Under the pieces are notes generated by a model. That model was not told where the DNA came from. It did no database searches and saw only the letters and a program-made list of their open reading frames with translations. From NCBI RefSeq assembly GCF_009931435.1, contig NZ_CP043414.1: 64,000 bases of DNA; one strand, written 5' to 3'. This DNA is from Escherichia coli (lineage in GTDB: Bacteria; Pseudomonadota; Gammaproteobacteria; Enterobacterales; Enterobacteriaceae). This document shows, in pieces, positions 6,382 through 44,408 of the stretch. A program made the translations under genes and the position numbers. Position 1 is the first letter of the stretch; every line of letters starts with the position of its first letter.

Positions 6382-7227
6382 TTATTTCAATGGCTCAACC
6401 GGTAAATCTGCCCGTGCGCCCCATTCACTCCATGCGCCGTCGTACAGTTTCACGTTTGGCACATCCAGCGTCGCGAGTGCCAACAAAACCACGGCTGCCG
6501 TTACACCAGAACCGCAGCTGACGATAATTGGTTTGTCGTAGCTGACACCGCGACCAAAAAATATCGCATCCAGTTCATCGGTCGTTTTTAGTTCGCCTTC
6601 ACGGACCAGTTCCGTCCACGGAACGTTCAATGCACCGGGAATATGTCCGCGACGTAAACCTGGGCGAGGTTCATCAACTTCTGCGTTAAAACGTGTAGCC
6701 GGGCGGGCATCAATAATTTGCGCCGTATTTTCATGGCTTGCCAATAATACATCGGTTACTTTCACCACGGCTTCAGGATTAAACGCGGCGTTAAACTCTC
6801 CTTCCGGCAGCTCTACTGCGCCTTCTTCTAATAGCAGATCATCACGCTGCCAGCCTGCAAGTCCACCACCCAGAATCGACACTTTCTCTACACCAAAGGT
6901 GCGCAGCATCCACCATGCGCGTGGGGCTGAGAAAAGATTACCTTCGTCATAGACAATCAGGTGCTTATCCTGGTTAACGCCTAACTCACGCATCGCCACG
7001 GCGAACGTTTCCGGGCGCGGCAGCATGTGCGGAAGCGGGGAAGTGTGATCAGAAAGCGCTTCGATATCGAAAAACACTGCGCCGGGAATATGTCCATTCA
7101 GATACTCCTGGGCAACGTTACGATCTTCCTGTCCAGGCGGTGCCATGCGGGCATCGATAATCTGAATTTCCGGGTCATCAATATGTTCGGCGAGCCAGTC
7201 GGCTCCTACAAACCATGTCGTGGACAT
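6382..7227 (-). CDS. sseA: 3-mercaptopyruvate sulfurtransferase (tandem rhodanese)
   Basis: ORF 6382-7239; internal ATG gives MSTTWFVGADW... (281 aa); rhodanese active-site loop CGSGVTA. Confidence 0.9.
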   Translation of the reverse strand: MSTTWFVGADWLAEHIDDPEIQIIDARMAPPGQEDRNVAQEYLNGHIPGAVFFDIEALSDHTSPLPHMLPRPETFAVAMRELGVNQDKHLIVYDEGNLFSAPRAWWMLRTFGVEKVSILGGGLAGWQRDDLLLEEGAVELPEGEFNAAFNPEAVVKVTDVLLASHENTAQIIDARPATRFNAEVDEPRPGLRRGHIPGALNVPWTELVREGELKTTDELDAIFFGRGVSYDKPIIVSCGSGVTAAVVLLALATLDVPNVKLYDGAWSEWGARADLPVEPLK

Positions 7228-30600: not shown

Positions 30601-33600
30601 TAACGGCGCACAGGCCATCGGCGGCGATACGCCGGTTTACGTCAGTTGCCTGACGACGGCGAACAAACCTGCCAGCAGCATTACGCTGGATGTGGTTGAT
30701 AACGCACAGTGGGCTGCCGGAAATAACGCGGCGAAGCTGAAAAAAGGCGAAACGCTACGGGTTAAGGTAACGGTAAAAGATGCGCAGGGTAATCCGCTCA
30801 CGGATATGCCATTTAAACTGAGTCGCGGAGACGGTTATACCCGCACGGGCGAAAAACATATTGCCGGTAGTGGCGATGCGCTGGTGGCACCGGTGGTGAT
30901 TAACAGTGGGCTGGCGGATGAAACGACGTTGAACGACACCGCGGGATTTTATACTGCCATGACCGGTAGCGACGGCAGCAAAATCCTCAATATTACCCGC
31001 CCGGATACTCACGGCACCAAAACGGCGCTGACGGCGACGTTGTATTCCGATCCAACAAAAAAAGACAGCCTGGATACAATCTTTACTGTGGTCACCAGCC
31101 CGGATAGTAGCAAAGCGAAAATGTGGGGGCATATGCCGGAAACGGTGACGGCTGCGGACGGTACGGTATTTAAACGCCCGCTGTTGTTGAAGGAACTGGC
31201 CTATCAGACTGGGCGAACATCGACGTCTGAAGACAATGAAAACTGGGCGTTGTTTAACATTAATTATGCGAGTTCTTCCACGACGTATAGTGGCTGTGGA
31301 ACCAACTATATTCCGACTCAAGCCGGTCTGACGTCACTGTTTGCTAATAATGCGGGCAACACCATGAAAACCGTGCAGGGCTGGCCGGTGGCAACACGCT
31401 ATTTGTCCAACACGTCCGACAACGGCAGCATGGAGCAGCGTAACTACAAGGCGGTAGATCTCAGCAATGGCACGAGTGCGGCAGTGTCATCAACGGCGCT
31501 GCAACTGCTGACCTGCCAGACCACGCCGGTAACCACGGTGGGCCAAATTCTGCTGGAAGCGGCAGATCCGGCGACGCTGGATACCACCTATAACGTGGTA
31601 AAAGCGAAAAAAGGCGAAGAATCCGTGGTGCGCGTCACCACCAAAGATACGCAAGGCAACCTGGTGGGCAATACGGCATTTATCCTGACGCGTGCCAACA
31701 GCGTGAGTCGGGCTAACGCATCAGCAACCGCGAGCGTGGGCGCGCTGACGGTGACGGATGCTTGGGGAAATACGCGAAATAATTTCCAGTCGACGAGTGA
31801 AACGATTTACGGCGTGACTGGTGCAGACGGGTCAACGACATTTACCCTGAAACAGGATAACAGTACCGGGTTAAGAACCGATCTCACGGCAAAACTGGAT
31901 ACGTCCAGCAGCGTCAAGGCGACGCTACCGGTGGTCTTTACTGTCGTGACCAGCCCGGATTCGCCAAAAGCGAATTTTTGGGGACATATGGCCGAAACGG
32001 TGATGGCCTCCGACGGTACAATCTATAAACGACCACTGTTGTTGAAAGAGCTGAGTAACACCAGTGGTCGAAATTCTACGGCTGAAAACGGTGAAGATTG
32101 GGCAAGATTCACCTGGACTCAGTCGGCTGACACCAGCATGAATGGGTGTGGTACAGATTATATGCCGACGCTGGATGGACTGAAGTCTTTGTATGACGCC
32201 AATAGCGGTAATGTGATGAGTACGGTGCAGGGATGGCCGGTAAAAACGACCTATCTCACCAATACCCCGAGTGATACGCAAACAGGGAGCCGTTACTACA
32301 ATGTGGTGCAACTGAATACTGGTGCAGTCTCACAAATCTCGACGAACACAGTCGTGCAACAAACCTGCCGCACAACGCCGTTGACGGCTGCTAGCCAGAT
32401 TACGCTGGAGGCCTCAGACCCCTCGCAATTTGTCAGCATTGACAGTACGCTTAGCGCGATCAAAGTGCAGAAAGGCGATAGCGTGTCGATCCGCATTTCG
32501 ACTAAAGATGCACAGGGGAATTTAGTCGGCAATACGCCGTTTGCCCTGAAACACGCTAACCCGGTCAATCGCCAAAATGTGGCGTCAACATCGCAGAAAG
32601 TGTCGGTCACGACTGCGTCGGGTACGACGGTGGATACCACTGCATCGACCATTCTGTATGGCGTGACCGGGCCAGACGGAACCACCACGATGACACTCCG
32701 ACAGGATGTGTCTACTGGACTCAAAACCGACTTTTATGCTCTGTTGAACGATACCGGCGTGTCGTCGAACACCTTGCCAGTGATCTTCACCGTCGTCACC
32801 AGCCCGGATACACCGCTGGCGGCCAACTGGGGGCATATGGCGGAAACCTTTACCAGCAGCAAGGGCGTCACCTTCAAACGGCCTTTCCTCAAAGCTGAAC
32901 TTTCTGGTGGTACGGCGGTAACGACCAATAATGAAGTCTGGTCGCGCCTGACAGCAACGGAGAAAACGGATGCCAGCAAGGCTGGGTGTGATGAGAGTTA
33001 TCAACCGCTGATGACTGACATGCAGGGGTTGTATGCGGATTACCCTAACAACCAGTTGGGCACGGTGCTCGGCTTGCCGACTTCCGCCGGGTATATGTGG
33101 GCCTACGACATGATGACGGTTTCTGGCAGCAGCTGGAGCAACCAGGCATATTCGCTCGTTAATGGTCAGACAGTTCAGGCATCGTCCAGTTATACGGCGG
33201 TAGTGATGTGCCTGGTGGAACCGCATACCGTTCCGGCGATGATAGAGATCACTTCAACAGCACAGGATGCGGCAAAAACGGTCAGCAATGGTGGTCGACC
33301 GAGCGCCGTAGCGAAGAAAGGTGAGACGATTCCGCTGACGGTGACCGTACGTGATAGCACCGGGAATCCGGTACCCTACGCCGACTTTACCCTCACGCGT
33401 GGAACGACGCTGGATCGCTCGAAAGCAACCGTTAACTCGAGTGCGGACGATCTTACCGTGAAGTCATTGATACCCGCGAACAGCGACGCTGGGCTGACGG
33501 CAAATGGGGCAAAAGTGCTCAGAACAACGGGCAGTGATGGCACAGCCACCTTTGAAGTGAGCCAGAATGCCACGACAGGTCTGGCGACACCGATAACCGT

Positions 33601-35761
33601 CACGCTGGCGCGCGATACAACCAAAACCGCCACGCTGGATGTTATCTACACGGTGATAACCAGCCCGGACTCACCGAGCGCGAAATTCTGGGGATACATG
33701 CCGGACACCTTTACCAGTTCGGCAGGCGTCACCTTCAGACGACCGCTCCTGAAAGCCGAAGCGACTTCAGGGTCATCGATTAGCACTAACGGCAATGGTG
33801 AAGTGTGGTCGTATATGAGCAACGTTCAAAATTTAACATCGACAGATTGTCCGCTGGAGAATCAACCGCGCAGTAATGAATTGTTGGATTTGTATAATGA
33901 TCATCCCAACGGCGCGATAATGACTGACCTGGGGCTGCCGATATATGCAGGCAAGTGGTGGGCTTATGATATGGTCATGCCGGATTTATATACGTGGCAG
34001 TATCAGACTGTCAGCCTGAGCGCAGGAGATATCGCGAAGAGCTCGGCAAACAACGCGCTGATGCTTTGCCTGGCGAAGCCGCATCCGGCAGGCGTCAGCG
34101 TAATGTTGACGTCATCCGCAATGGATAACGCCAGAACCCTCAGTAATGGCGGGCGACCCAGCGCGTCAGTGAAAAAAGGTAACCCACTGCCAATTGTGGT
34201 GACGGTCAAAGATCGTGATGGCAACCCGCTGGCGGGAGAGGCCGTTACGCTCAGGCGTGGTTCAGCGATGAGCCGTTCAGGAGCAGGAGTGGGCACGCCG
34301 GCAAATGCAATGACGTTGACAGAGTTGACACCTGTGTCGGCGGAGTTTTCTCTGGCCGCACACGATACGCAATGGCAAGGTTTCACCGGCAGTGATGGTA
34401 CGGCCACTTTCAATGTTGAACAGCCTGAGACCATCGGCCTGGCCATTCCGTTCACCGCTATACTGGCGCGAGATGTCGCAACTACCAGCGTCCTTGATAC
34501 GATCTTTACCGTCGTCACCAGCCCGGATTCCGCAATGGCGACCTACTGGGGCCATATGCCGGATACGGTAACGGCGGAAAACGGCGTGGTCTTTGAACGG
34601 CCTAAATTGTTGAAAGAGCTGCCGTCGAGCGCCGGAGTCAGTCAGGTGACGGATAACAATGAAGTGTGGCCGTTGTTTAAGGCAACGCAAAGGGAAGATA
34701 GCAGCCTCAGTCCTTGTGAAGCGGCACGTCGGCCATTGAGCGATGATTTATTATCGCTCTACGCGCGCTATCCGGGGAACACGCTGACGACTCAAATCGG
34801 CTGGTCTACGAAGTATGCATGGTGGGCACTGGATAACAAGCAGGGGAATGCCCTGGTTGTCAGTCTGAATAATGGTTTTGAGTCGTCGACGGCGAGTACG
34901 GGGTATCAGGGATGTCTGGTCAATCCCCGCGCGACCGTCTCCAGCGTCACGCTGACATCGACGGTGATAGATGCCACTACGCAGGCGGCGAAGGTAAAAA
35001 AAGGTGAAGCCGCGCCCGTCGTTGTTACCGTAAAAGACAGCGCCGGGAAGCCGGTACCGAATGTCGCTTTCACCTTAAAACGTGGTGATGCCGTGCCGCG
35101 TAACAGCGGGGCGACGTTGTATGGTGATGTTGCGGCGATGGATGATATGACGGTACAACCTGCCAGCGGGACGGTGGTAACGCTGGCTGACAGTGGGAAT
35201 ACGATCGACGGTGTGACAGGGGCGGACGGTACGGCAAGTTTTGCCGTTCGTCAGGATAATACGCCAGGATATAAAACGCCGTTGACGGTGACGCTGACGG
35301 ATAACGCCACAATAACGGCGACGCTGGATACGATTTTCACCGTGCCGACCAGCCCGAATGTCGCCACGGCGTATTTCTGGGGGCATATGGCGGATACCGC
35401 CACCGTAAGTGGCAAGACGTTACATCGCCCGCTATTGCAATCAGAGTTGCCGTCAGGGGCTACAGCGGCAGTAGCGCCAACGGTGAATAATGAAATCTGG
35501 GCGCTGGCACATGTGATCGATGCTCAAAAATGGGATATTGCAAAGCAGTGCGGTGACTTTAGTAGAGCACCGAGCTATACCGATTTACAGTCGTTACATA
35601 GCAGCTTTAGCGCGCTGGGATGGCCATCATCGATAAGCTTCCCCTATTTCTCTACCGATCGGGCCGGTTCGTTCTATTGTGGCATGGATGAAGGGGCGGG
35701 GACACAAAACTGCGGTATTCAGGCATCCAGTACTGCGGGGTTTGCAACCTGTTTCCAGTAG
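27677..35761 (+). CDS. ratA: Giant RatA/RatB-like repetitive surface or secreted protein (Big_1-type Ig-like domains)
   Basis: 2694-aa uninterrupted ORF; N-terminal signal ([17 protein letters not shown]); nine tandem repeats each with a Big_1-like strand (e.g. [13 protein letters not shown]), a TSPD motif and a WGHM motif; last gene of island, convergent with xseA. Confidence 0.65.
28640..35400 (+). repeat. Nine tandem, divergent coding repeats (period 804-861 nt) inside the ratA-like gene
   Basis: The tgg-ggN-cat/tac-atg (WGHM/WGYM) motif recurs at 28670, 29474, 30278, 31124, 31979, 32828, 33689, 34547, 35378; each is preceded by accagcccgga (TSPD). Confidence 0.85.
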
Positions 35762-35816
35762 TCTTAACGGGTCTGTAAATGGGGGCCAAGATGTAAATAA
35801 GATTCGCAATACGTCA

Positions 35817-37214
<1,398 letters not shown>

Positions 37215-38880: not shown

Positions 38881-40458
38881 ATGACGGAAAACATTCATAA
38901 GCATCGCATCCTCATTCTGGACTTCGGTTCTCAGTACACCCAACTGGTTGCGCGCCGCGTGCGTGAACTGGGTGTTTACTGCGAACTGTGGGCGTGGGAT
39001 GTGACAGAAGCACAAATTCGTGACTTCAATCCAAGCGGCATTATTCTTTCCGGCGGCCCGGAAAGCACCACCGAAGAAAACAGCCCGCGTGCGCCGCAGT
39101 ATGTCTTTGAAGCAGGCGTACCGGTATTCGGCGTTTGCTATGGTATGCAGACCATGGCAATGCAGTTGGGTGGTCATGTTGAAGCCTCTAACGAACGTGA
39201 ATTTGGCTATGCGCAGGTTGAAGTCGTAAACGACAGCGCACTGGTTCGCGGTATCGAAGATGCTCTGACAGCAGACGGTAAACCTCTGCTCGATGTCTGG
39301 ATGAGCCACGGCGATAAAGTTACCGCTATCCCGTCCGACTTCATCACCGTAGCCAGCACCGAAAGCTGCCCGTTCGCCATCATGGCAAATGAAGAAAAAC
39401 GCTTCTATGGCGTACAGTTCCACCCGGAAGTGACTCATACCCGCCAGGGGATGCGCATGCTGGAGCGTTTTGTGCGTGATATCTGCCAGTGTGAAGCCCT
39501 GTGGACGCCAGCGAAAATTATCGACGATGCAGTAGCCCGTATCCGCGAGCAGGTAGGCGACGATAAAGTGATCCTCGGCCTCTCTGGTGGCGTGGATTCC
39601 TCCGTGACTGCAATGCTGCTGCACCGCGCAATCGGCAAAAACCTGACTTGCGTATTCGTTGACAACGGCCTGCTGCGTCTCAACGAAGCAGAGCAGGTTC
39701 TGGATATGTTTGGCGATCACTTTGGTCTGAACATTGTTCACGTTCCGGCAGAAGATCGCTTCTTGTCAGCGCTGGCTGGTGAAAACGATCCGGAAGCAAA
39801 ACGTAAAATCATCGGTCGCGTTTTCGTTGAAGTATTCGATGAAGAAGCGCTGAAACTGGAAGATGTGAAGTGGCTGGCGCAGGGTACTATCTACCCTGAT
39901 GTTATCGAATCTGCCGCGTCTGCAACCGGTAAAGCTCACGTCATCAAATCTCACCACAACGTGGGCGGCCTGCCGAAAGAGATGAAGATGGGCCTGGTTG
40001 AACCGCTGAAAGAGCTGTTCAAAGACGAAGTGCGTAAAATTGGTCTGGAGCTGGGCCTGCCGTACGACATGCTGTACCGTCACCCGTTCCCGGGACCAGG
40101 GCTTGGCGTTCGTGTGCTGGGCGAAGTGAAGAAAGAGTACTGCGACCTGCTGCGCCGTGCTGATGCCATCTTCATTGAAGAACTGCGTAAAGCGGACCTG
40201 TACGACAAAGTTAGCCAGGCGTTTACCGTGTTCCTGCCGGTACGTTCTGTTGGCGTAATGGGCGATGGTCGTAAATACGACTGGGTTGTGTCTCTGCGTG
40301 CCGTCGAAACCATCGACTTTATGACCGCACACTGGGCACATCTGCCGTACGATTTCCTTGGTCGCGTTTCCAACCGCATTATCAATGAAGTGAACGGTAT
40401 TTCCCGCGTGGTGTATGACATCAGCGGCAAGCCGCCAGCGACTATTGAGTGGGAGTAG
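38881..40458 (+). CDS. guaA: GMP synthase (glutamine-hydrolysing)
   Basis: 525-aa ORF; GATase motif GVCYGMQ; PP-loop SGGVDSSV; C-terminal ...PPATIEWE. Confidence 0.97.
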
Positions 40459-40503
40459 GACTGGCTATAAATAGTAAATTAAGCCTTTCCAACTAACTTT
40501 AAT

Positions 40504-40536
40504 GCCAGTCAGTTTGCTGACTGGCATTTTTTATTG
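40504..40536 (+). terminator. guaA rho-independent terminator (gccagtcagtttgctgactggc then attttttatt)
   Basis: Perfect hairpin plus T-tract 45 nt after guaA stop. Confidence 0.7.
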
Positions 40537-40604
40537 GTTTTTCATTGAGTTTATGACTTCTATTTTTAAGGCCGTAACTCTATAACATCGGCTATGGCCT
40601 AAAG

Positions 40605-40632
40605 ATAAAAGCCATTACCAACAAAATGGCGG
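40605..40632 (-). terminator. Probable minus-strand terminator downstream of the membrane receiver-like gene
   Basis: Minus-strand reading gccattttgttggtaatggc followed by ttttatcttt; lies about 120 nt downstream of the ORF ending at 40753. Confidence 0.45.
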
Positions 40633-40752
40633 TATTCCAAAACAGTCTAGCCGGAAGTGCTTACAATGAGATCGATCAAATCGACAAATGAGATACTGGC
40701 CGTTGTGAGCGCCCGGCAACCGTAGCCGTAGGGGGCGAATTTAATGGCTTTG

Positions 40753-41529
40753 TTATGAGCCATTGGTAATCGCACCCATGACAATTTGAAAGAGTTCTTC
40801 TGCTCGATTAGTGGAGCCAATTGCACCTCTTTCTCTCGCCATTCTCTTGTGCTCTGGTAGATCTGAGGACGCATAGATCATAAAAGGAGTTTTGTCTCCC
40901 ATTGCGCGTAATCTTTCTAGTAAGACATAACCTTCTTGCGCCCCTTCTTTGCGATCCATATCCGAAATAATAGCTGCAAACTTATTTGTTTTTAACAATT
41001 CCAAGGCTTCGTCAGTTGAAAGAGCTAAAGCGAACTCTATTCCCTGTGCCTCAAATGCCTGTCTTTCGTAAACATTATTTTCTGGTCGATCATCCACCCA
41101 TAAAATACGATTTCGCCATTTTTCATGCTTACTCTGCCGTTTTGCATTGGATACAACGTTGACGATTTTTTGCAGTTGGCTTTCAGTGACCCCTGCACTA
41201 TTTTCAGGCTGTTTTGCTGTGGCGGCGGTCAATGATGCTGCTGTAGCTATTTGCGCTCTTAAAAAATTATTTTCATCTTTGAAATCTGACGGCCCGTAAA
41301 GCTTATTATGATGTTTCGCAACAAGCCAGAGAAAGCCAAGAAACACAATGACAGGAAAGAAAACCATGAAATAAATAAGGGGAGCTATATGCTCTGATAA
41401 GCCATTACCAAAGCCAACGACGAAAGAGGCAAATCCATAAACGAGAACAATAAAGAGTGCAATGATACCAAGAGGGCTTTTGGTAAATCCTATTGCAGTT
41501 TCAGCAAATTTCTCTGGTTCCATATCCAT
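40753..41529 (-). CDS. Hypothetical membrane protein: two N-terminal TM helices plus a C-terminal CheY-like receiver-like domain (accessory gene, not in K-12 layout)
   Basis: 258-aa ORF; TM segments GIIALFIVLVYGFASFVVGF and IAPLIYFMVFFPVIVFLGFLWLV; C-terminal REC-like pattern ILWVDDRPENN / AAIISDMDR / TPFMIYASSD / GAIGSTNRAEEL with N/R where the conserved REC Lys is expected; AT-rich codon usage. Confidence 0.7.
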   Translation of the reverse strand: MDMEPEKFAETAIGFTKSPLGIIALFIVLVYGFASFVVGFGNGLSEHIAPLIYFMVFFPVIVFLGFLWLVAKHHNKLYGPSDFKDENNFLRAQIATAASLTAATAKQPENSAGVTESQLQKIVNVVSNAKRQSKHEKWRNRILWVDDRPENNVYERQAFEAQGIEFALALSTDEALELLKTNKFAAIISDMDRKEGAQEGYVLLERLRAMGDKTPFMIYASSDLPEHKRMARERGAIGSTNRAEELFQIVMGAITNGS

Positions 41530-41616
41530 CCTCAGTATTGCTCATAACACAGTTAAGTTGTATTAGATCAGACCTGATCTGACAATTACCGGCTATTTAT
41601 AAAGGTATCTGTCAGA

Positions 41617-42012
41617 TTACATCTGGCTTAAGTTTTTCTCATCCCAGATGTGCTTTCCATCAAGTAACGTTTCCATCGGCGTTCGGCCACTGCACATTTT
41701 TCCCTGATGGGTTCGCTCATTATTATAGTGAACCCGCCATTCATCAAGAACCGATTGTAATGCTTCAAGATCATCATATAACTTTTTGCGGAACGTCACC
41801 TGATAAAACTCGTTCAGTATCGTTTTATGGAACTGCTCGCAGATACTATTGGTCTTAGATGACATTGCTTTCGTTTTCGTATGCTCAATATCATTTATCG
41901 CCAGATAAAGCTGGTAATCATGCTGCTCCACTTTACCGCAATCTCTTGGTGTATTGAGAGGCGGGTTATAAAATAAATACTGATACCATGAGGGCGGATC
42001 AATCGTGGTCAT
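41617..42012 (-). pseudogene. Truncated DDE (rve-type) transposase, C-terminal fragment only: IS remnant
   Basis: 131-aa ORF with integrase-core C-terminal signatures NSICEQFHKTILNEF and WRVHYNNERTHQG...GRTP; upstream DD catalytic region and DNA-binding N-terminus are absent. Confidence 0.6.
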
Positions 42013-42027
42013 AGTATCAGGTCATTC

Positions 42028-43542
42028 TCATGGGTTTATTGCGTCCCTGAAGATGACGTCGCTGACCATCTCTCCTCCAAGAAAATCGATCAACATATTC
42101 GAGTTTTCAAGGTCTTCTCTGGTCAATGCCCCGATTGCTTGTCCAACTACTACCTCCCAAGGTTTTTTACACTCAACAATAGCACAGACGAGTTGGCGGA
42201 TTTTCTTGATCTTCTTGTGACGCAATCGGTCGTTCGATTCCATTAGTTCTGCAATCAACGCTATGTCGGAGTGTGTTTGATTATCCTCAACCCATTTTTT
42301 GGCTGCGTCTACAAATTCCACCCATGTAACATTCATTACTGCAAGGCATGAATCAGTCAAAAGAACATTTTCGATAGCGTAGCATCGTAAGCGATAGCGT
42401 TTAAGAGGTAGGCGATGTTCAAGCGACTTGTTGATTACACCATCGCCATCACGAAGGGAAAAGGCGATTGGATTGTCATAGAGTGTACTAAGGAGGTCTA
42501 CGCAAAAATCCTCAAGTTGACTCTGTTGATCTACGCTACCTGCTAGTACGGGAAAGATTTTTATTCGACCCTGTGATGTTCTGGCCGCTTGTTGCCAGAC
42601 TCGTTCGTCGTCCTCTCCTTCCAAAATTAATGCAGCGTCTTCGCTAAGAGAAAGCGATAGGGGGTGCCCGAAGAATGGTGCAATCTTTCGAAGTTCATCG
42701 CTGGCCGGTATCAATGAGATTTCATTTACTGCAAAGCTCTTCGTGCCGATTGATACATATGGGGAGGCGGCAAGAGAACAGACGAGCGGGGAACTATGGG
42801 TGGATAAGCATATGGCAATACTGTTCGCGTGTGTTCTAAATTCGTCGAGCATACTGATTATCAGCTTGCCCAGTCTAGCTTGGAGGTCGGGGTGCAGATG
42901 TACATCAGGCTCATCGAGGAGGAGTACGTTGAATTTCTCCGGATCTATTGTGTCGAAGAAATAGATGATTTCCGCGGCTAATGCAACCGCTTCCGATTCA
43001 CCGCTACTGATTTGGGCCGGATCAATAATCTGACCATCTACAAGTGATCGAAACTCATAATCGACATTACCCATCTCGAGCGAAATGTTAGTGAGAAGCT
43101 GATTAATTTTACTTAATCGGTCTGTCTGAAAGTTTCGCGTTAGATCAGTTCGAATTTCCGGAGTATTGGCAAGTCGACGTAAGTAAAGCGTCTCGGCCTC
43201 GCGAAATAGCATAGCCGATGCAGCTTTGAAGTTGCTTGCCTGATTAACTGCCCGAGTGTGCCTCAGCCATTCGGGGTTGTCGCTCATATTTGTGAGGACG
43301 GTGCCATCACGCTTGAACGATCCTGCTCGCTCTGGACTTACATACCGGACATAAAATTGCTGCTTGTTCTGGCTGATTGTTTGTTCGATATCGCGAAGGA
43401 AACGACTTTTTCCCGCACCGTTTCGGCCCATAATTATGTTGATGTTGTTTAAGCCGTAAAGTCGGCCAATTTGGCTAGATAACTCGCTTACTTTCAAGAT
43501 TGTAACTCCATTTCTTGTTGCCACATACGGTAACAAATACAC
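42028..43542 (-). CDS. OLD-family-like ATPase-nuclease (ABC-type ATPase fused to TOPRIM-like domain); accessory gene
   Basis: 504-aa ORF with GTG start at 43542; Walker A GRNGAGKS (43405-43428), ABC-signature-like ISSGES, Walker B/D-loop VLLLDEPDVHLHP, H-loop STHS; C-terminal TOPRIM-like LILEGEDDE (~42610-42630) and RDGDG (~42440-42454). Confidence 0.75.
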   Translation of the reverse strand: MYLLPYVATRNGVTILKVSELSSQIGRLYGLNNINIIMGRNGAGKSRFLRDIEQTISQNKQQFYVRYVSPERAGSFKRDGTVLTNMSDNPEWLRHTRAVNQASNFKAASAMLFREAETLYLRRLANTPEIRTDLTRNFQTDRLSKINQLLTNISLEMGNVDYEFRSLVDGQIIDPAQISSGESEAVALAAEIIYFFDTIDPEKFNVLLLDEPDVHLHPDLQARLGKLIISMLDEFRTHANSIAICLSTHSSPLVCSLAASPYVSIGTKSFAVNEISLIPASDELRKIAPFFGHPLSLSLSEDAALILEGEDDERVWQQAARTSQGRIKIFPVLAGSVDQQSQLEDFCVDLLSTLYDNPIAFSLRDGDGVINKSLEHRLPLKRYRLRCYAIENVLLTDSCLAVMNVTWVEFVDAAKKWVEDNQTHSDIALIAELMESNDRLRHKKIKKIRQLVCAIVECKKPWEVVVGQAIGALTREDLENSNMLIDFLGGEMVSDVIFRDAINP

Positions 43543-43573
43543 TAACTGAATAGGTGCGTTGATGCCTCATTTT

Positions 43574-43606
43574 GTTCACATCTATGTTGAAATTAGTGAT
43601 GTGAAC
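43574..43606. promoter_or_regulatory. 9-bp perfect inverted repeat (gttcacatc N15 gatgtgaac) upstream of the ATPase gene: candidate operator
   Basis: Read directly: gttcacatc at 43574-43582 and gatgtgaac at 43598-43606, 32-64 nt upstream of the GTG start at 43542. Confidence 0.35.
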
Positions 43607-43802
43607 GAGCTAAGGACTCTATTAGGAGTAGAGCGGCCATATTGTTCGTCTGAACAGCCTGTAGACAGCTCTATTATTGAGACATGGTATTTTTCGTGGT
43701 ATCTGCTAAGTAGTTTGTTTCAAGGCATTGATTTATTTATATTTTATTTTCTCATTGATAGCTGAGTGGGAATGATTTGATCCCTGCACTATGAATTAGC
43801 AA

Positions 43803-43835
43803 AACCCTCTGTTACTACAGAGGGTTTTTTATACT
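43803..43835. terminator. Hairpin (aaaccctctgttactacagagggtttttt) downstream of yfgI at the right edge of the insertion
   Basis: 10-bp stem with T-run on the plus strand and TTTTGC on the minus strand; 34 nt beyond the yfgI stop. Confidence 0.5.
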
Positions 43836-43868
43836 CACGAATCATAGGATTGAAGTTACTGACATCGC

Positions 43869-44408
43869 TTAGTTAAACCAGCTGTCCGATTTGTTCTCTT
43901 CTGCTTTGCCCACGCTTTTCATCAGATCGCGACCGCCTTCAGTCATATTCCTGTTTGCGTCAGCTTCAGATTGCACCACATCGGTTTGCGCAGCTTTGTG
44001 CTTCAGTTCCTGATCGATAAATTCGTTTTCTCGCTTAACGCGGGCTTCTTCTTTCGCCAGCGCCAGTTTTTGTTTCTGAATCTCTAAGCTGCGTAGCTCA
44101 TCTTCATAACTTTGATCGCGTTTCTTGTCCGCAGTGGCTTCGGCGTCCAGTTTATCCTGACGAGCTTTCTTATTTGCCGCTGCCGTTGCCGCTCTTTTGT
44201 TAGCGGCGGCCTGGGCGTTTGCGCGACGTTGCTTCTCTTGCTGGATTTCCCTGTTGCGCTCCGCGACCCATTCGTCATGCTGCCTTTGCTCTTCATTTTT
44301 ACCTTGCTGTTCCGCTTCTGCGACAGCAGAGAGTTGATCCTGCAATGATGAGGCGATAGCCGGATAGCTTAAGGAGGCTAAGATGGCGCAAAGAAAAACT
44401 TTCTTCAT
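43869..44408 (-). CDS. yfgI: YfgI (secreted/periplasmic coiled-coil protein)
   Basis: 179-aa ORF with signal peptide MKKVFLCAILASLSYPAIA and charged low-complexity body; conserved position relative to yfgH. Confidence 0.8.
   Translation of the reverse strand: MKKVFLCAILASLSYPAIASSLQDQLSAVAEAEQQGKNEEQRQHDEWVAERNREIQQEKQRRANAQAAANKRAATAAANKKARQDKLDAEATADKKRDQSYEDELRSLEIQKQKLALAKEEARVKRENEFIDQELKHKAAQTDVVQSEADANRNMTEGGRDLMKSVGKAEENKSDSWFN

Follow-up and report, generated by a model that had tools for sequence, protein, structure and literature searches.

Two integrase-less single-gene units, encoding an ATPase-TOPRIM protein and a membrane receiver protein, are probably stacked at the guaA attachment site in Escherichia coli

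The stretch of Escherichia coli DNA analyzed here (64,000 nucleotides of contig NZ_CP043414.1, assembly GCF_009931435.1; hereafter, the window) carries an insert of ~3.3 kb between guaA and yfgI that encodes an ABC-type ATPase with a TOPRIM-like C-terminus, a transposase remnant and a protein with two transmembrane segments (2TM) and a receiver (REC) domain. An initial annotation of this DNA had proposed that the ATPase and the receiver protein could form a two-gene defence module later split by an insertion sequence (IS) or, alternatively, could be two independent cargo genes. Our comparative data back the second possibility. It is likely that the insert consists of two independent, integrase-less, single-gene units lying head-to-tail at the guaA attachment site, and that these became neighbors by accretion at a hotspot rather than by shared function. 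The site, whose core is GAGTGGGA, is used by GIsul2-family elements, integrative and conjugative elements (ICEs) and a P22-like prophage. The initial picture of a mobile island with an OLD-like gene and a membrane receiver protein is therefore retained, but the two-gene module is not.

The insert is a rare accessory region, acquired horizontally; K-12-like genomes have nothing inserted at this junction. Its flanks were matched in 5425 of 5426 complete E. coli genomes while the insert was present in only 27, and in most E. coli genomes guaA and yfgI are spaced by ~90 bp. This comparison, which the initial annotation had suggested, agrees with its statement that the two genes are direct neighbors in the K-12 gene order and shows the locus to be accessory, not core. 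In each of the 27 insert-bearing genomes, both genes are present, intact, at least 99% identical and chromosomal. Two further claims were borne out: the region is AT-rich (GC content 0.38-0.49 over positions 40400-43800 vs. 0.52-0.58 in guaBA), and its three open reading frames (ORFs; 504, 131 and 258 aa in the ORF list) all lie on the minus strand. In the RefSeq annotation of E. coli GW-AmxH19, the three ORFs of this block appear as "AAA family ATPase" (489 aa), "integrase core domain" (a partial pseudogene) and "response regulator" (256 aa). Examination of the three ORFs within the insert revealed none that is integrase-like, and an Rfam scan of the insert returned zero RNA families.

When an empty-site genome was aligned to the window, it formed two blocks that overlapped by nine bases, TGAGTGGGA. 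Exactly two copies of this sequence occur in the 64-kb window (expected, 0.31), and both are at the breakpoints. It contains GAGTGGGA, the published 8-bp core of GIsul2-family att sites, which are found at the guaA 3' end (PMC9376610; PMC7775301). The guaA gene now ends in ...GAGTGGGAGTAG, its last bases and TAG stop codon (40456-40458) being supplied by the insert. The native ending, ...GAGTGGGAATGA, lies together with the native terminator at 43763-43831, and positions 43772-43831 align at 97% with the sequence directly after guaA in the empty-site genome. Since each integration would rebuild the guaA end, the native stop and terminator would come to lie on the yfgI side, where they are found. 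The hairpin that the initial annotation took for the guaA terminator is real, but it belongs to the insert, and the native terminator has been displaced. This insert-borne hairpin travels with the receiver unit, as it is conserved in Klebsiella, Kluyvera and a metagenome-derived contig (L098), and the native guaA terminator also flanks the receiver unit in Kluyvera and L098.

Several properties of this site are known from GIsul2-family work: the E. coli attB at this guaA position has been used experimentally, the integrase-less, att-flanked unit CR2-sul2 undergoes excision and integration in trans, and tandem insertions at guaA recreate the core (PMC9376610). ICERspD18B has a 20-bp repeat, ACAATNGAGTGGGAATNNTT (PMC7775301). 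The insert has GAGTGGGA-bearing direct repeats at both of its ends in the guaA 3' end, as GIsul2-family elements do, but none of its three ORFs encodes the P4-type integrase, with AlpA, that such elements carry. Lacking its own integrase, it resembles an integrase-less, att-flanked passenger and not an autonomous island.

Comparison of the insert by blastn with loci of other genera split it into two units (Table 1). The match to receiver-only loci (Kluyvera L097 and the contig L098) ends at 41942, and the match to ATPase-only loci (Serratia L091, Pseudomonas aeruginosa L003 and Enterobacter L094) runs from the yfgI-side core and ends at 41942-41968. Ten bases past the junction, at the inner end of the ATPase unit, is TATTGAGAGGCGGG, which is conserved there among three genera. 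It agrees with ATTGAGTGGGA at 8 of 11 bases and may represent the guaA end/att site in decayed form. The outer end of the unit, GCTATCAAT(G/A)AGA..ATAAAA, lies directly against the core in E. coli, Klebsiella and P. aeruginosa. Positions 43498-43762 gave no convincing sigma-70 consensus, and a promoter scan that yielded fewer sigma-70-like sites than shuffled sequences was uninformative.

Each unit also occurs at guaA without the other. The match to the ATPase unit is 92% identical in Serratia marcescens, 83% in Enterobacter bugandensis and 74% in P. aeruginosa; in each of them the ATPase gene is convergent with and downstream of guaA, and the receiver gene is lacking. In Serratia and Enterobacter the ATPase unit stands beside guaA together with other cargo, and in P. 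aeruginosa it is a 1.9-kb unit with this gene only, flanked by the exact 12-bp repeat GAGTGGGAGTGA. Vreelandella glaciei likewise has the ATPase gene (coding-region nucleotide identity, 74%) adjoining guaA, convergent and without the receiver gene. The reverse arrangement is seen in Kluyvera sichuanensis, where the receiver unit with its IS481 remnant (89.6% identity) lies beside guaA, from the guaA-side core to 41942, and there is no ATPase gene. In L098 the receiver unit is found between the guaA terminator and a relaxase/KAP-NTPase element. The two units occur together outside E. coli in Klebsiella pneumoniae (L011 2766-5496, GCA_051076125.1), as the same block at 96-98% identity. There, an IS3-family element interrupts the ATPase gene, and the adjacent receiver gene is intact, encoding a protein 99% identical to that of E. 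coli.

The transposase gene belongs to the receiver unit and is truncated at the unit border. Residues 32-115 of the 131-aa ORF match the NCBIfam model transpos_IS481 (9.3e-23) at profile positions 206-283/284, with a score of 81 bits against a cut-off of 224, and RefSeq calls the gene a pseudogene with a missing N-terminus. The truncated DDE transposase of the initial annotation is thus identified as an IS481-family C-terminal remnant, comprising only the last ~80 profile positions of a complete transposase.

Table 1. Coordinates of the guaA-yfgI insert, its two units and their flanks (positions in the window)
Feature	Position	Strand	Remarks
guaA	38881-40458	+	From the ORF list
Left att-like core, TGAGTGGGA	40446-40454	+	Within the last guaA codons; empty-site alignment breaks exactly there
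Unit B (receiver unit, IS481 remnant included)	40455-41942		
Insert-borne hairpin and T-run, now terminating guaA	40501-40536	+	12-pair stem; inside the insert relative to the empty site
Receiver-protein gene, 256 aa	40753-41523	-	Alternative ATG at 41529 (258 aa); RefSeq "response regulator"
IS481-family transposase remnant, C-terminal part only	41617-41940	-	Part of the receiver unit, truncated at the unit border
131-aa ORF holding the IS481 remnant	41617-42012	-	From the ORF list
Unit junction 41942/41943, then possible decayed att-like TATTGAGAGGCGGG	41942-41965 (element 41952-41965)		
Unit A (ATPase unit)	41943-43762		
ATPase-TOPRIM gene, 489 aa	42028-43497	-	TTG start at 43497, GGAG Shine-Dalgarno, as in RefSeq
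Longer ATPase ORF, 504 aa	42028-43542	-	In-frame GTG at 43542
ATPase unit outer end and upstream region	43498-43762	-	GC 0.38; ...TTTTATTTTCTCATTGATAGC abuts the core
Right att-like core, TGAGTGGGA	43763-43771	+	Direct repeat of 40446-40454
Displaced native guaA end (ATGA stop) and native terminator hairpin	43772-43831	+	3.3 kb from guaA
yfgI	43869-44408	-	From the ORF list

In one of the two alternatives of the initial annotation, the ATPase/TOPRIM and the membrane receiver protein would be one defence system that was later interrupted by an IS, here IS481. Membrane effectors paired with ATPase sensors do occur in other systems, and the two genes are co-oriented, adjacent, mobile and under purifying selection; E. 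coli (27 genomes) and K. pneumoniae always carry them as a pair. However, they are found together only as one near-identical block (98-99% nucleotide identity), recently shared by E. coli and K. pneumoniae, and the pairing therefore counts as a single event. A scan of one genome per species (GTDB) for relatives of the ATPase yielded 65 loci, and in none of these was a receiver homolog detected by tblastn within up to 10 kb on each side. When the ORFs lying up to 4 kb from the ATPase gene were clustered for 52 loci, no neighbor recurred except guaBA and local genes. The proposed co-occurrence check therefore finds the genes adjacent nowhere but in the E. coli/K. pneumoniae block. Nor did the IS split a pair, as the IS481 remnant accompanies the receiver gene in Kluyvera, where no ATPase gene is present; and in K. 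pneumoniae the ATPase gene is disrupted while the receiver gene is intact.

The receiver gene, for its part, is solo in ~8 contexts, including Dickeya (two contexts), Pseudomonas cavernicola, Agarilytica and metagenome contigs. In Vibrio cyclitrophicus (L009) it lies within an array of ~110-nt attC/VCR-like repeats, beside TacAT and ParE cassettes; one repeat directly follows the gene (6761-6901) and others are at 530, 2635, 8389, 8963, 10622, 11191 and 12015. Judged by these repeats, it is an integron gene cassette there. No histidine kinase gene adjoins the receiver gene in the window or in the Klebsiella, Kluyvera, Vibrio, Pseudomonas, Agarilytica, metagenome and Dickeya L007 contexts. In Dickeya L006, a LytS-type kinase and a LytTR regulator are encoded ~3.7 kb upstream on the opposite strand, with three unrelated genes between. 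Upstream of the solo gene in P. cavernicola (L100 1-3922) is a run of genes for a 958-aa protein, two small proteins, an adenosine-deaminase-family protein and a Ham1-like NTP pyrophosphatase, which may be another accessory island. From the context in ~80 loci we rejected a two-gene system: each gene occurs without the other at the same guaA site, and we regard their functioning as one unit as highly improbable. The initial annotation had itself held that the module would fall if homologs of the two genes never co-localized elsewhere, and on that measure it is close to refuted.

The guaA junction proved to be a hotspot for other elements as well. In P. aeruginosa (L002 7640-13473, Logan ERR2322253), an ICE-like element with genes for a 1341-aa helix-turn-helix (HTH)/STAND-type NTPase, DUF2274 and TrbI occupies the guaA core in tandem with the ATPase unit. 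Where the ICE meets the core, its end, ATCATCAATAGATCG, is similar to that of the ATPase unit, GCTATCAATGAGA, which hints at shared arm/recognition sequences. In L082 (3310-13010, IMG/VR UViG_2541047801_000004), and also in L081, L084, L086 and L087, the two-unit island is followed, exactly at the core, by a P22-like prophage, with ...CTCCCACTCA on one side of the border and ATTATTTACGG on the other. The prophage genes encode an Rz-like spanin, an endolysin, a tailspike, Ant and an ejection/structural protein. The guaA 3' core is thus also a prophage attachment site, and the island can stand between the prophage end and yfgI. We had considered that these IMG/VR matches were false viral calls made on the core genome upstream of guaB, an explanation dismissed upon finding a real P22-like prophage at the core. 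Further cargo includes an AbiEi-like and Fic/DOC pair and a PDC-M40B-like PADLOC candidate at the same junction in E. coli VTB97432v (L015 1031-5750); a HipA-like kinase with two unknown genes at the guaA site in Serratia (L091 7780-11116); and a 302-aa unknown protein at that of Enterobacter (L094 8309-9217). A KAP NTPase (PDC-S49, 4e-141) is encoded beside the receiver unit in L098, and IS200C is found at the guaA-yfgI junction in some E. coli.

Such crowding raises the question of whether a larger guaA element (a prophage, an ICE or a GIsul2-like island) has been decaying here and the insert is its inert remainder, with ORFs that are leftover cargo and have no present function. The missing integrase, the truncated IS481 gene exactly at the internal junction, the P22-like prophage and ICEs that share the site in tandem with the units, and the IS3-broken ATPase gene of Klebsiella are all consistent with decay. 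However, both ORFs are intact in 27 of 27 E. coli genomes, and ratios of nonsynonymous to synonymous substitution (dN/dS) are 0.05-0.31 across genera. Moreover, the same units with the same ends recur across genera with different neighbors, which argues for moving or selected units and not debris. We therefore consider decay of a larger element quite unlikely.

The ATPase was annotated initially as a 504-aa protein. That ORF is confirmed, but TTG at 43497 is a likelier start than GTG at 43542 and the likelier protein is 489 aa. It matches the Pfam models AAA_15 (1.9e-10), AAA_21 (1.7e-9) and ABC_tran (9.6e-5). The motifs GRNGAGKS, SSGESE, LDEPDVHLHP and THS are invariant in 42 close (65-94% identity) and 31 distant (31-60%) homologs, and the family-wide invariant motifs are, in order, GxNGxGKS, PERxG, SSGESE, LDEPDVHLHPDLQ and THS, then PxFG(A)HPLS, EGEDDxR, RDxD, EN and KPWEV. 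Walker A, signature, Walker B and H-loop are thus all present, as in an ABC-type ATPase, and the predicted fold matches the AriA, PtuA, GajA and Rad50 heads. An AlphaFold2 (AF2) model (mean predicted local distance difference test, pLDDT, of 79) has an ABC head with a short, partly disordered helical insert (residues 57-132). The TOPRIM domain is recognized by motifs and predicted fold only: the family invariably has E293 (within EGEDD) and D350/D352 (within RDxD), and residues 288-369 are predicted as a beta-alpha-beta-alpha-beta-beta unit (pLDDT 68-97) in which the Glu follows strand 1 and DxD follows strand 3. In full-length Foldseek alignments the retron Eco8 OLD nuclease and GajA matched best, followed by PtuA and AriA.

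Profile searches place the protein near PARIS. Of the Pfam families that the initial annotation had proposed to search, AAA_15 and AAA_21 (and Response_reg, for the receiver protein) were matched, but TOPRIM_OLD gave no match to the ATPase protein and DUF4435 only sub-threshold scores. Among 22 family members, DUF4435 was detected in 15 at E ≤ 0.1 and in three at E ≤ 0.001 (best, 1.3e-6). The C-terminal domain alone had AriB as its sole PADLOC match (23.6 bits, E 1.2e-5). Against the whole protein, PADLOC AriAB scored 50.8 bits over residues 85-396 (504-aa numbering), covering only ~220-529 of its 694 profile positions; for four distant members it scored 49-93 bits, at rank 1-2. The family gives its best or near-best scores against this merged-PARIS model, which speaks against the ATPase being unassignable, and the claim of an OLD-like ATPase/TOPRIM protein is supported by the AAA_15/AAA_21 matches, the AriB and AriAB profiles and the predicted fold. 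Hence, by its motifs and predicted fold, the protein belongs to the OLD family and joins an ABC ATPase to a divergent TOPRIM domain of the DUF4435 type; within that family it is nearest to merged PARIS (AriAB), and current annotation tools probably label it PARIS-like already. NCBIfam PtuA and Eco8 scores were ~30 bits, far under their cut-offs of 500 and 250. Membership in Gabija, Septu or a retron system was rejected since the required partner (GajB, the PtuB HNH protein, or a reverse transcriptase and non-coding RNA) is missing and the 52 loci have no recurrent neighbor within 4 kb.

A profile of the C-terminal domain, searched against 1.84 billion representative sequences, matched 354 clusters, nearly all of 470-520 aa; the family thus forms a small, discrete and compact clade (~485 aa) of ATPase-DUF4435 fusions. 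Only the family itself was among the 150 best matches listed, and a link to stand-alone AriB was not obtained in this way. Values of dN/dS for the ATPase were 0.05-0.14 relative to Serratia, Enterobacter and Pseudomonas. In an alphaproteobacterial, prophage-like viral contig (L088 9291-11464), a 75%-identical homolog is encoded directly after an HTH/S24 (CI/LexA-like) repressor gene, a position typical for moron/defence genes.

The initial description of a two-TM, receiver-like protein was upheld. Hydrophobic segments at residues ~18-40 and 44-70 are followed by a low-confidence linker and a C-terminal REC domain that matches Pfam Response_reg (2.9e-7, residues 142-237). In the AF2 model the receiver (residues 135-254) has a pLDDT of ~90, with Foldseek TM-scores of up to 0.85 against the receivers of KdpE, PhoP, CheY and RssB. 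The closest sequence matches are receiver domains of hybrid kinases, e.g., RcsC and RpfC. Residues conserved among homologs include the acidic pair D144/D145, D188 (phospho-acceptor position) and S220, as in canonical response regulators, and the usual receiver Lys aligns with a conserved Arg240 (hidden Markov model alignment to RcsC). An adjacent kinase and the DNA-binding or enzymatic output of a canonical response regulator are lacking, the only other module being the 2TM hairpin. Homologs 68-91% identical to the protein range from Enterobacteriaceae to Vibrio, Pseudoalteromonas, Acidithiobacillus and Nitrosomonas, and dN/dS is 0.08-0.31; taken together, these values indicate that the gene has been transferred widely while under strong constraint. 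Conservation of the TM hairpin and of the juxtamembrane motif KLYGPSDF equals that of the receiver domain. A PHROG of unknown function is matched by the protein's N-terminal module (1.5e-7). In a viral contig (L085 3451-4882), a related 2TM module joined to another C-terminal domain is encoded immediately downstream of an HTH-S24 repressor gene, again a usual place for accessory or defence genes of prophages. When the 98-residue N-terminal segment was used as the query, only short proteins of 54-171 aa and fragments were recovered, which was uninformative on fusions. Many of these ~54-171-aa proteins (P0241-P0305) are the 2TM/KLYGPSDF module alone and some are gene fragments; some of the module-only proteins may be stand-alone small membrane proteins of the receiver protein's family.

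Two functions can be envisaged for this protein. It could be an accessory signalling component and not a defence protein, i.e., an orphan, membrane-tethered receiver that connects to phosphorelays of the host, e.g., by acting as a phosphate sink or as an Hpt partner, and so adjusts host physiology on behalf of the mobile element. The true receiver fold, the conserved D144/D145, D188 and S220, the resemblance to hybrid-kinase receivers, the lack of a PADLOC match, and the lack of a nearby kinase, which would require host partners, all fit such a role. On the other hand, Arg240 at the Lys position makes phosphotransfer chemistry uncertain, and the extreme conservation of the TM hairpin would be unusual for a mere anchor. 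Carriage in an integron beside toxin-antitoxin cassettes, at the guaA hotspot and among defence candidates fits conflict genes, as does the related 2TM module that is joined to another C-terminal domain and follows a CI-like repressor gene in a viral contig. Accessory signalling is the main rival, serious though unlikely. Our preferred guess is a stand-alone, membrane-acting conflict module. In its full form, this would be a new single-gene conflict or anti-phage module, spread via integrons, the guaA att site and plasmids, in which a kinase-less receiver, responding to a host phosphodonor or to a phage product that it binds, gates a 2TM hairpin, with death or arrest of the infected cell as the outcome; so specified, the proposal is speculative and a little more doubtful still. 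The receiver protein is the sole part of the insert with real potential for novelty.

Several points weigh against our interpretation of the insert and its genes. No integrase or excisionase gene lies in or beside the insert in this window, and we infer its mobility from the sequence. Between the units, a search allowing ≤1 mismatch found no intact att core, only the degenerate TATTGAGAGGCGGG. The outer border of the Kluyvera receiver unit is without a core, and so this unit, which ends within the truncated IS481 gene, may be what a deletion left behind and not a true cassette. The ATPase is dispensable in K. pneumoniae, as the IS3 insertion indicates. We know of no phage phenotype for either the ATPase or the receiver family, and the receiver protein has no PADLOC match, so that it is only the context that suggests a part in defence for it. 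A search of the C-terminal-domain profile of the ATPase against Protein Data Bank sequences recovered no solved AriB/OLD TOPRIM; its weak matches there (MS2 coat protein and a Borrelia outer surface protein) were discarded as spurious. Finally, Pfam DUF4435 scored 11.3-13.5 bits for the window protein (E 0.29 and 0.061), below the 27-bit threshold published for DUF4435 (PF14491) detection in PARIS (PMC9122126).

Under the interpretation of two independent units, each was probably brought in by site-specific recombination, with the P4-type integrase of a co-resident element acting in trans, or else was probably left behind next to such an integrase-bearing element. The domains, motifs and stand-alone genomic behavior of the ATPase are established above, and by analogy with PARIS it would act in defence. 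PARIS is activated by phage anti-restriction proteins such as Ocr, whereupon the released TOPRIM nuclease cleaves tRNA (PMC11464382). In unit A, the ATPase heads would similarly sense a phage-derived trigger, and ATP binding or hydrolysis would release or activate the TOPRIM nuclease. Cleavage of a host nucleic acid (tRNA in PARIS) would then stop translation and abort infection. Unit B, with its dead IS481 fragment, encodes a cytoplasmic receiver domain anchored by a strongly conserved two-helix hairpin in the membrane, and this protein might conceivably act alone: a change of receiver state, through phosphorylation of D188 by a host phosphodonor or through partner binding, might alter oligomerization of the hairpin and thereby affect membrane integrity or a membrane partner.

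A second accessory region occurs near the insert, upstream of xseA-guaBA, at ~30800-36200 of the window (by correspondence with L090 30793-42174). In GW-AmxH19, sinH, a SinI-family gene and an adhesion-domain gene of ~8 kb are found upstream of xseA-guaBA.

The guaA 3' end, known as a site for GIsul2 resistance islands, appears also to gather very small defence-type cassettes, each with one gene and no integrase, in tandem with ICEs and a prophage, which could offer defence genes a cheap route between Enterobacteriaceae, Pseudomonas and Halomonadaceae. The ~485-aa ATPase-DUF4435 clade could serve as a minimal model of how sensing and a TOPRIM nuclease are coupled in one chain, and the receiver protein, which is widely transferred, strongly conserved and uncharacterized, is a concrete candidate for testing. 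The guaA integration site and the PARIS/OLD kind of protein were both known already, and current understanding is not overturned; the ATPase is a new member of that kind and represents a compact clade.

The units share with GIsul2-family elements and CR2-sul2 the guaA 3' site, direct repeats of the core GAGTGGGA, regeneration of the guaA end and tandem stacking. Unlike GIsul2-family elements, the insert has no int, alpA, replication or transfer genes, its units are only 1.5-1.8 kb each, and its cargo is a defence-type gene and not a resistance gene. The receiver protein is reminiscent of Detocs DtcC, in which a receiver is likewise coupled, in a mobile and defence-like setting, to a membrane-associated module that does not bind DNA, and which includes variants with transmembrane effectors. 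However, Detocs needs the DtcA kinase and the DtcB receiver in the same operon, neither of which is near the receiver gene, and the domain order is reversed, the receiver protein having its TM segments N-terminal and its REC domain C-terminal. Membership in Detocs was rejected on the lack of an adjacent kinase or second receiver and of a PADLOC match. The ATPase combines an ABC ATPase with a TOPRIM domain in one chain, as do P2 Old and other class 1 OLD proteins, GajA and the retron Eco8 OLD effector, but it is smaller (489 aa vs. ~580-750), and, in contrast to Gabija and retrons, no GajB helicase, retron reverse transcriptase/msr-msd or other conserved partner is encoded nearby. The closest likeness is to merged PARIS (AriAB, OLD class 4), single-gene fusions of which have already been described (PMC9122126; PMC11464382). 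The ATPase is ~200 residues shorter than the 694-position AriAB profile and has a short helical insert where AriA has a coiled coil and insertion sequences. Nevertheless, in both, an AAA_15/AAA_21 ATPase is followed in one chain by a DUF4435-type TOPRIM domain with its E and DxD, and both are stand-alone genes carried on mobile elements and prophages.

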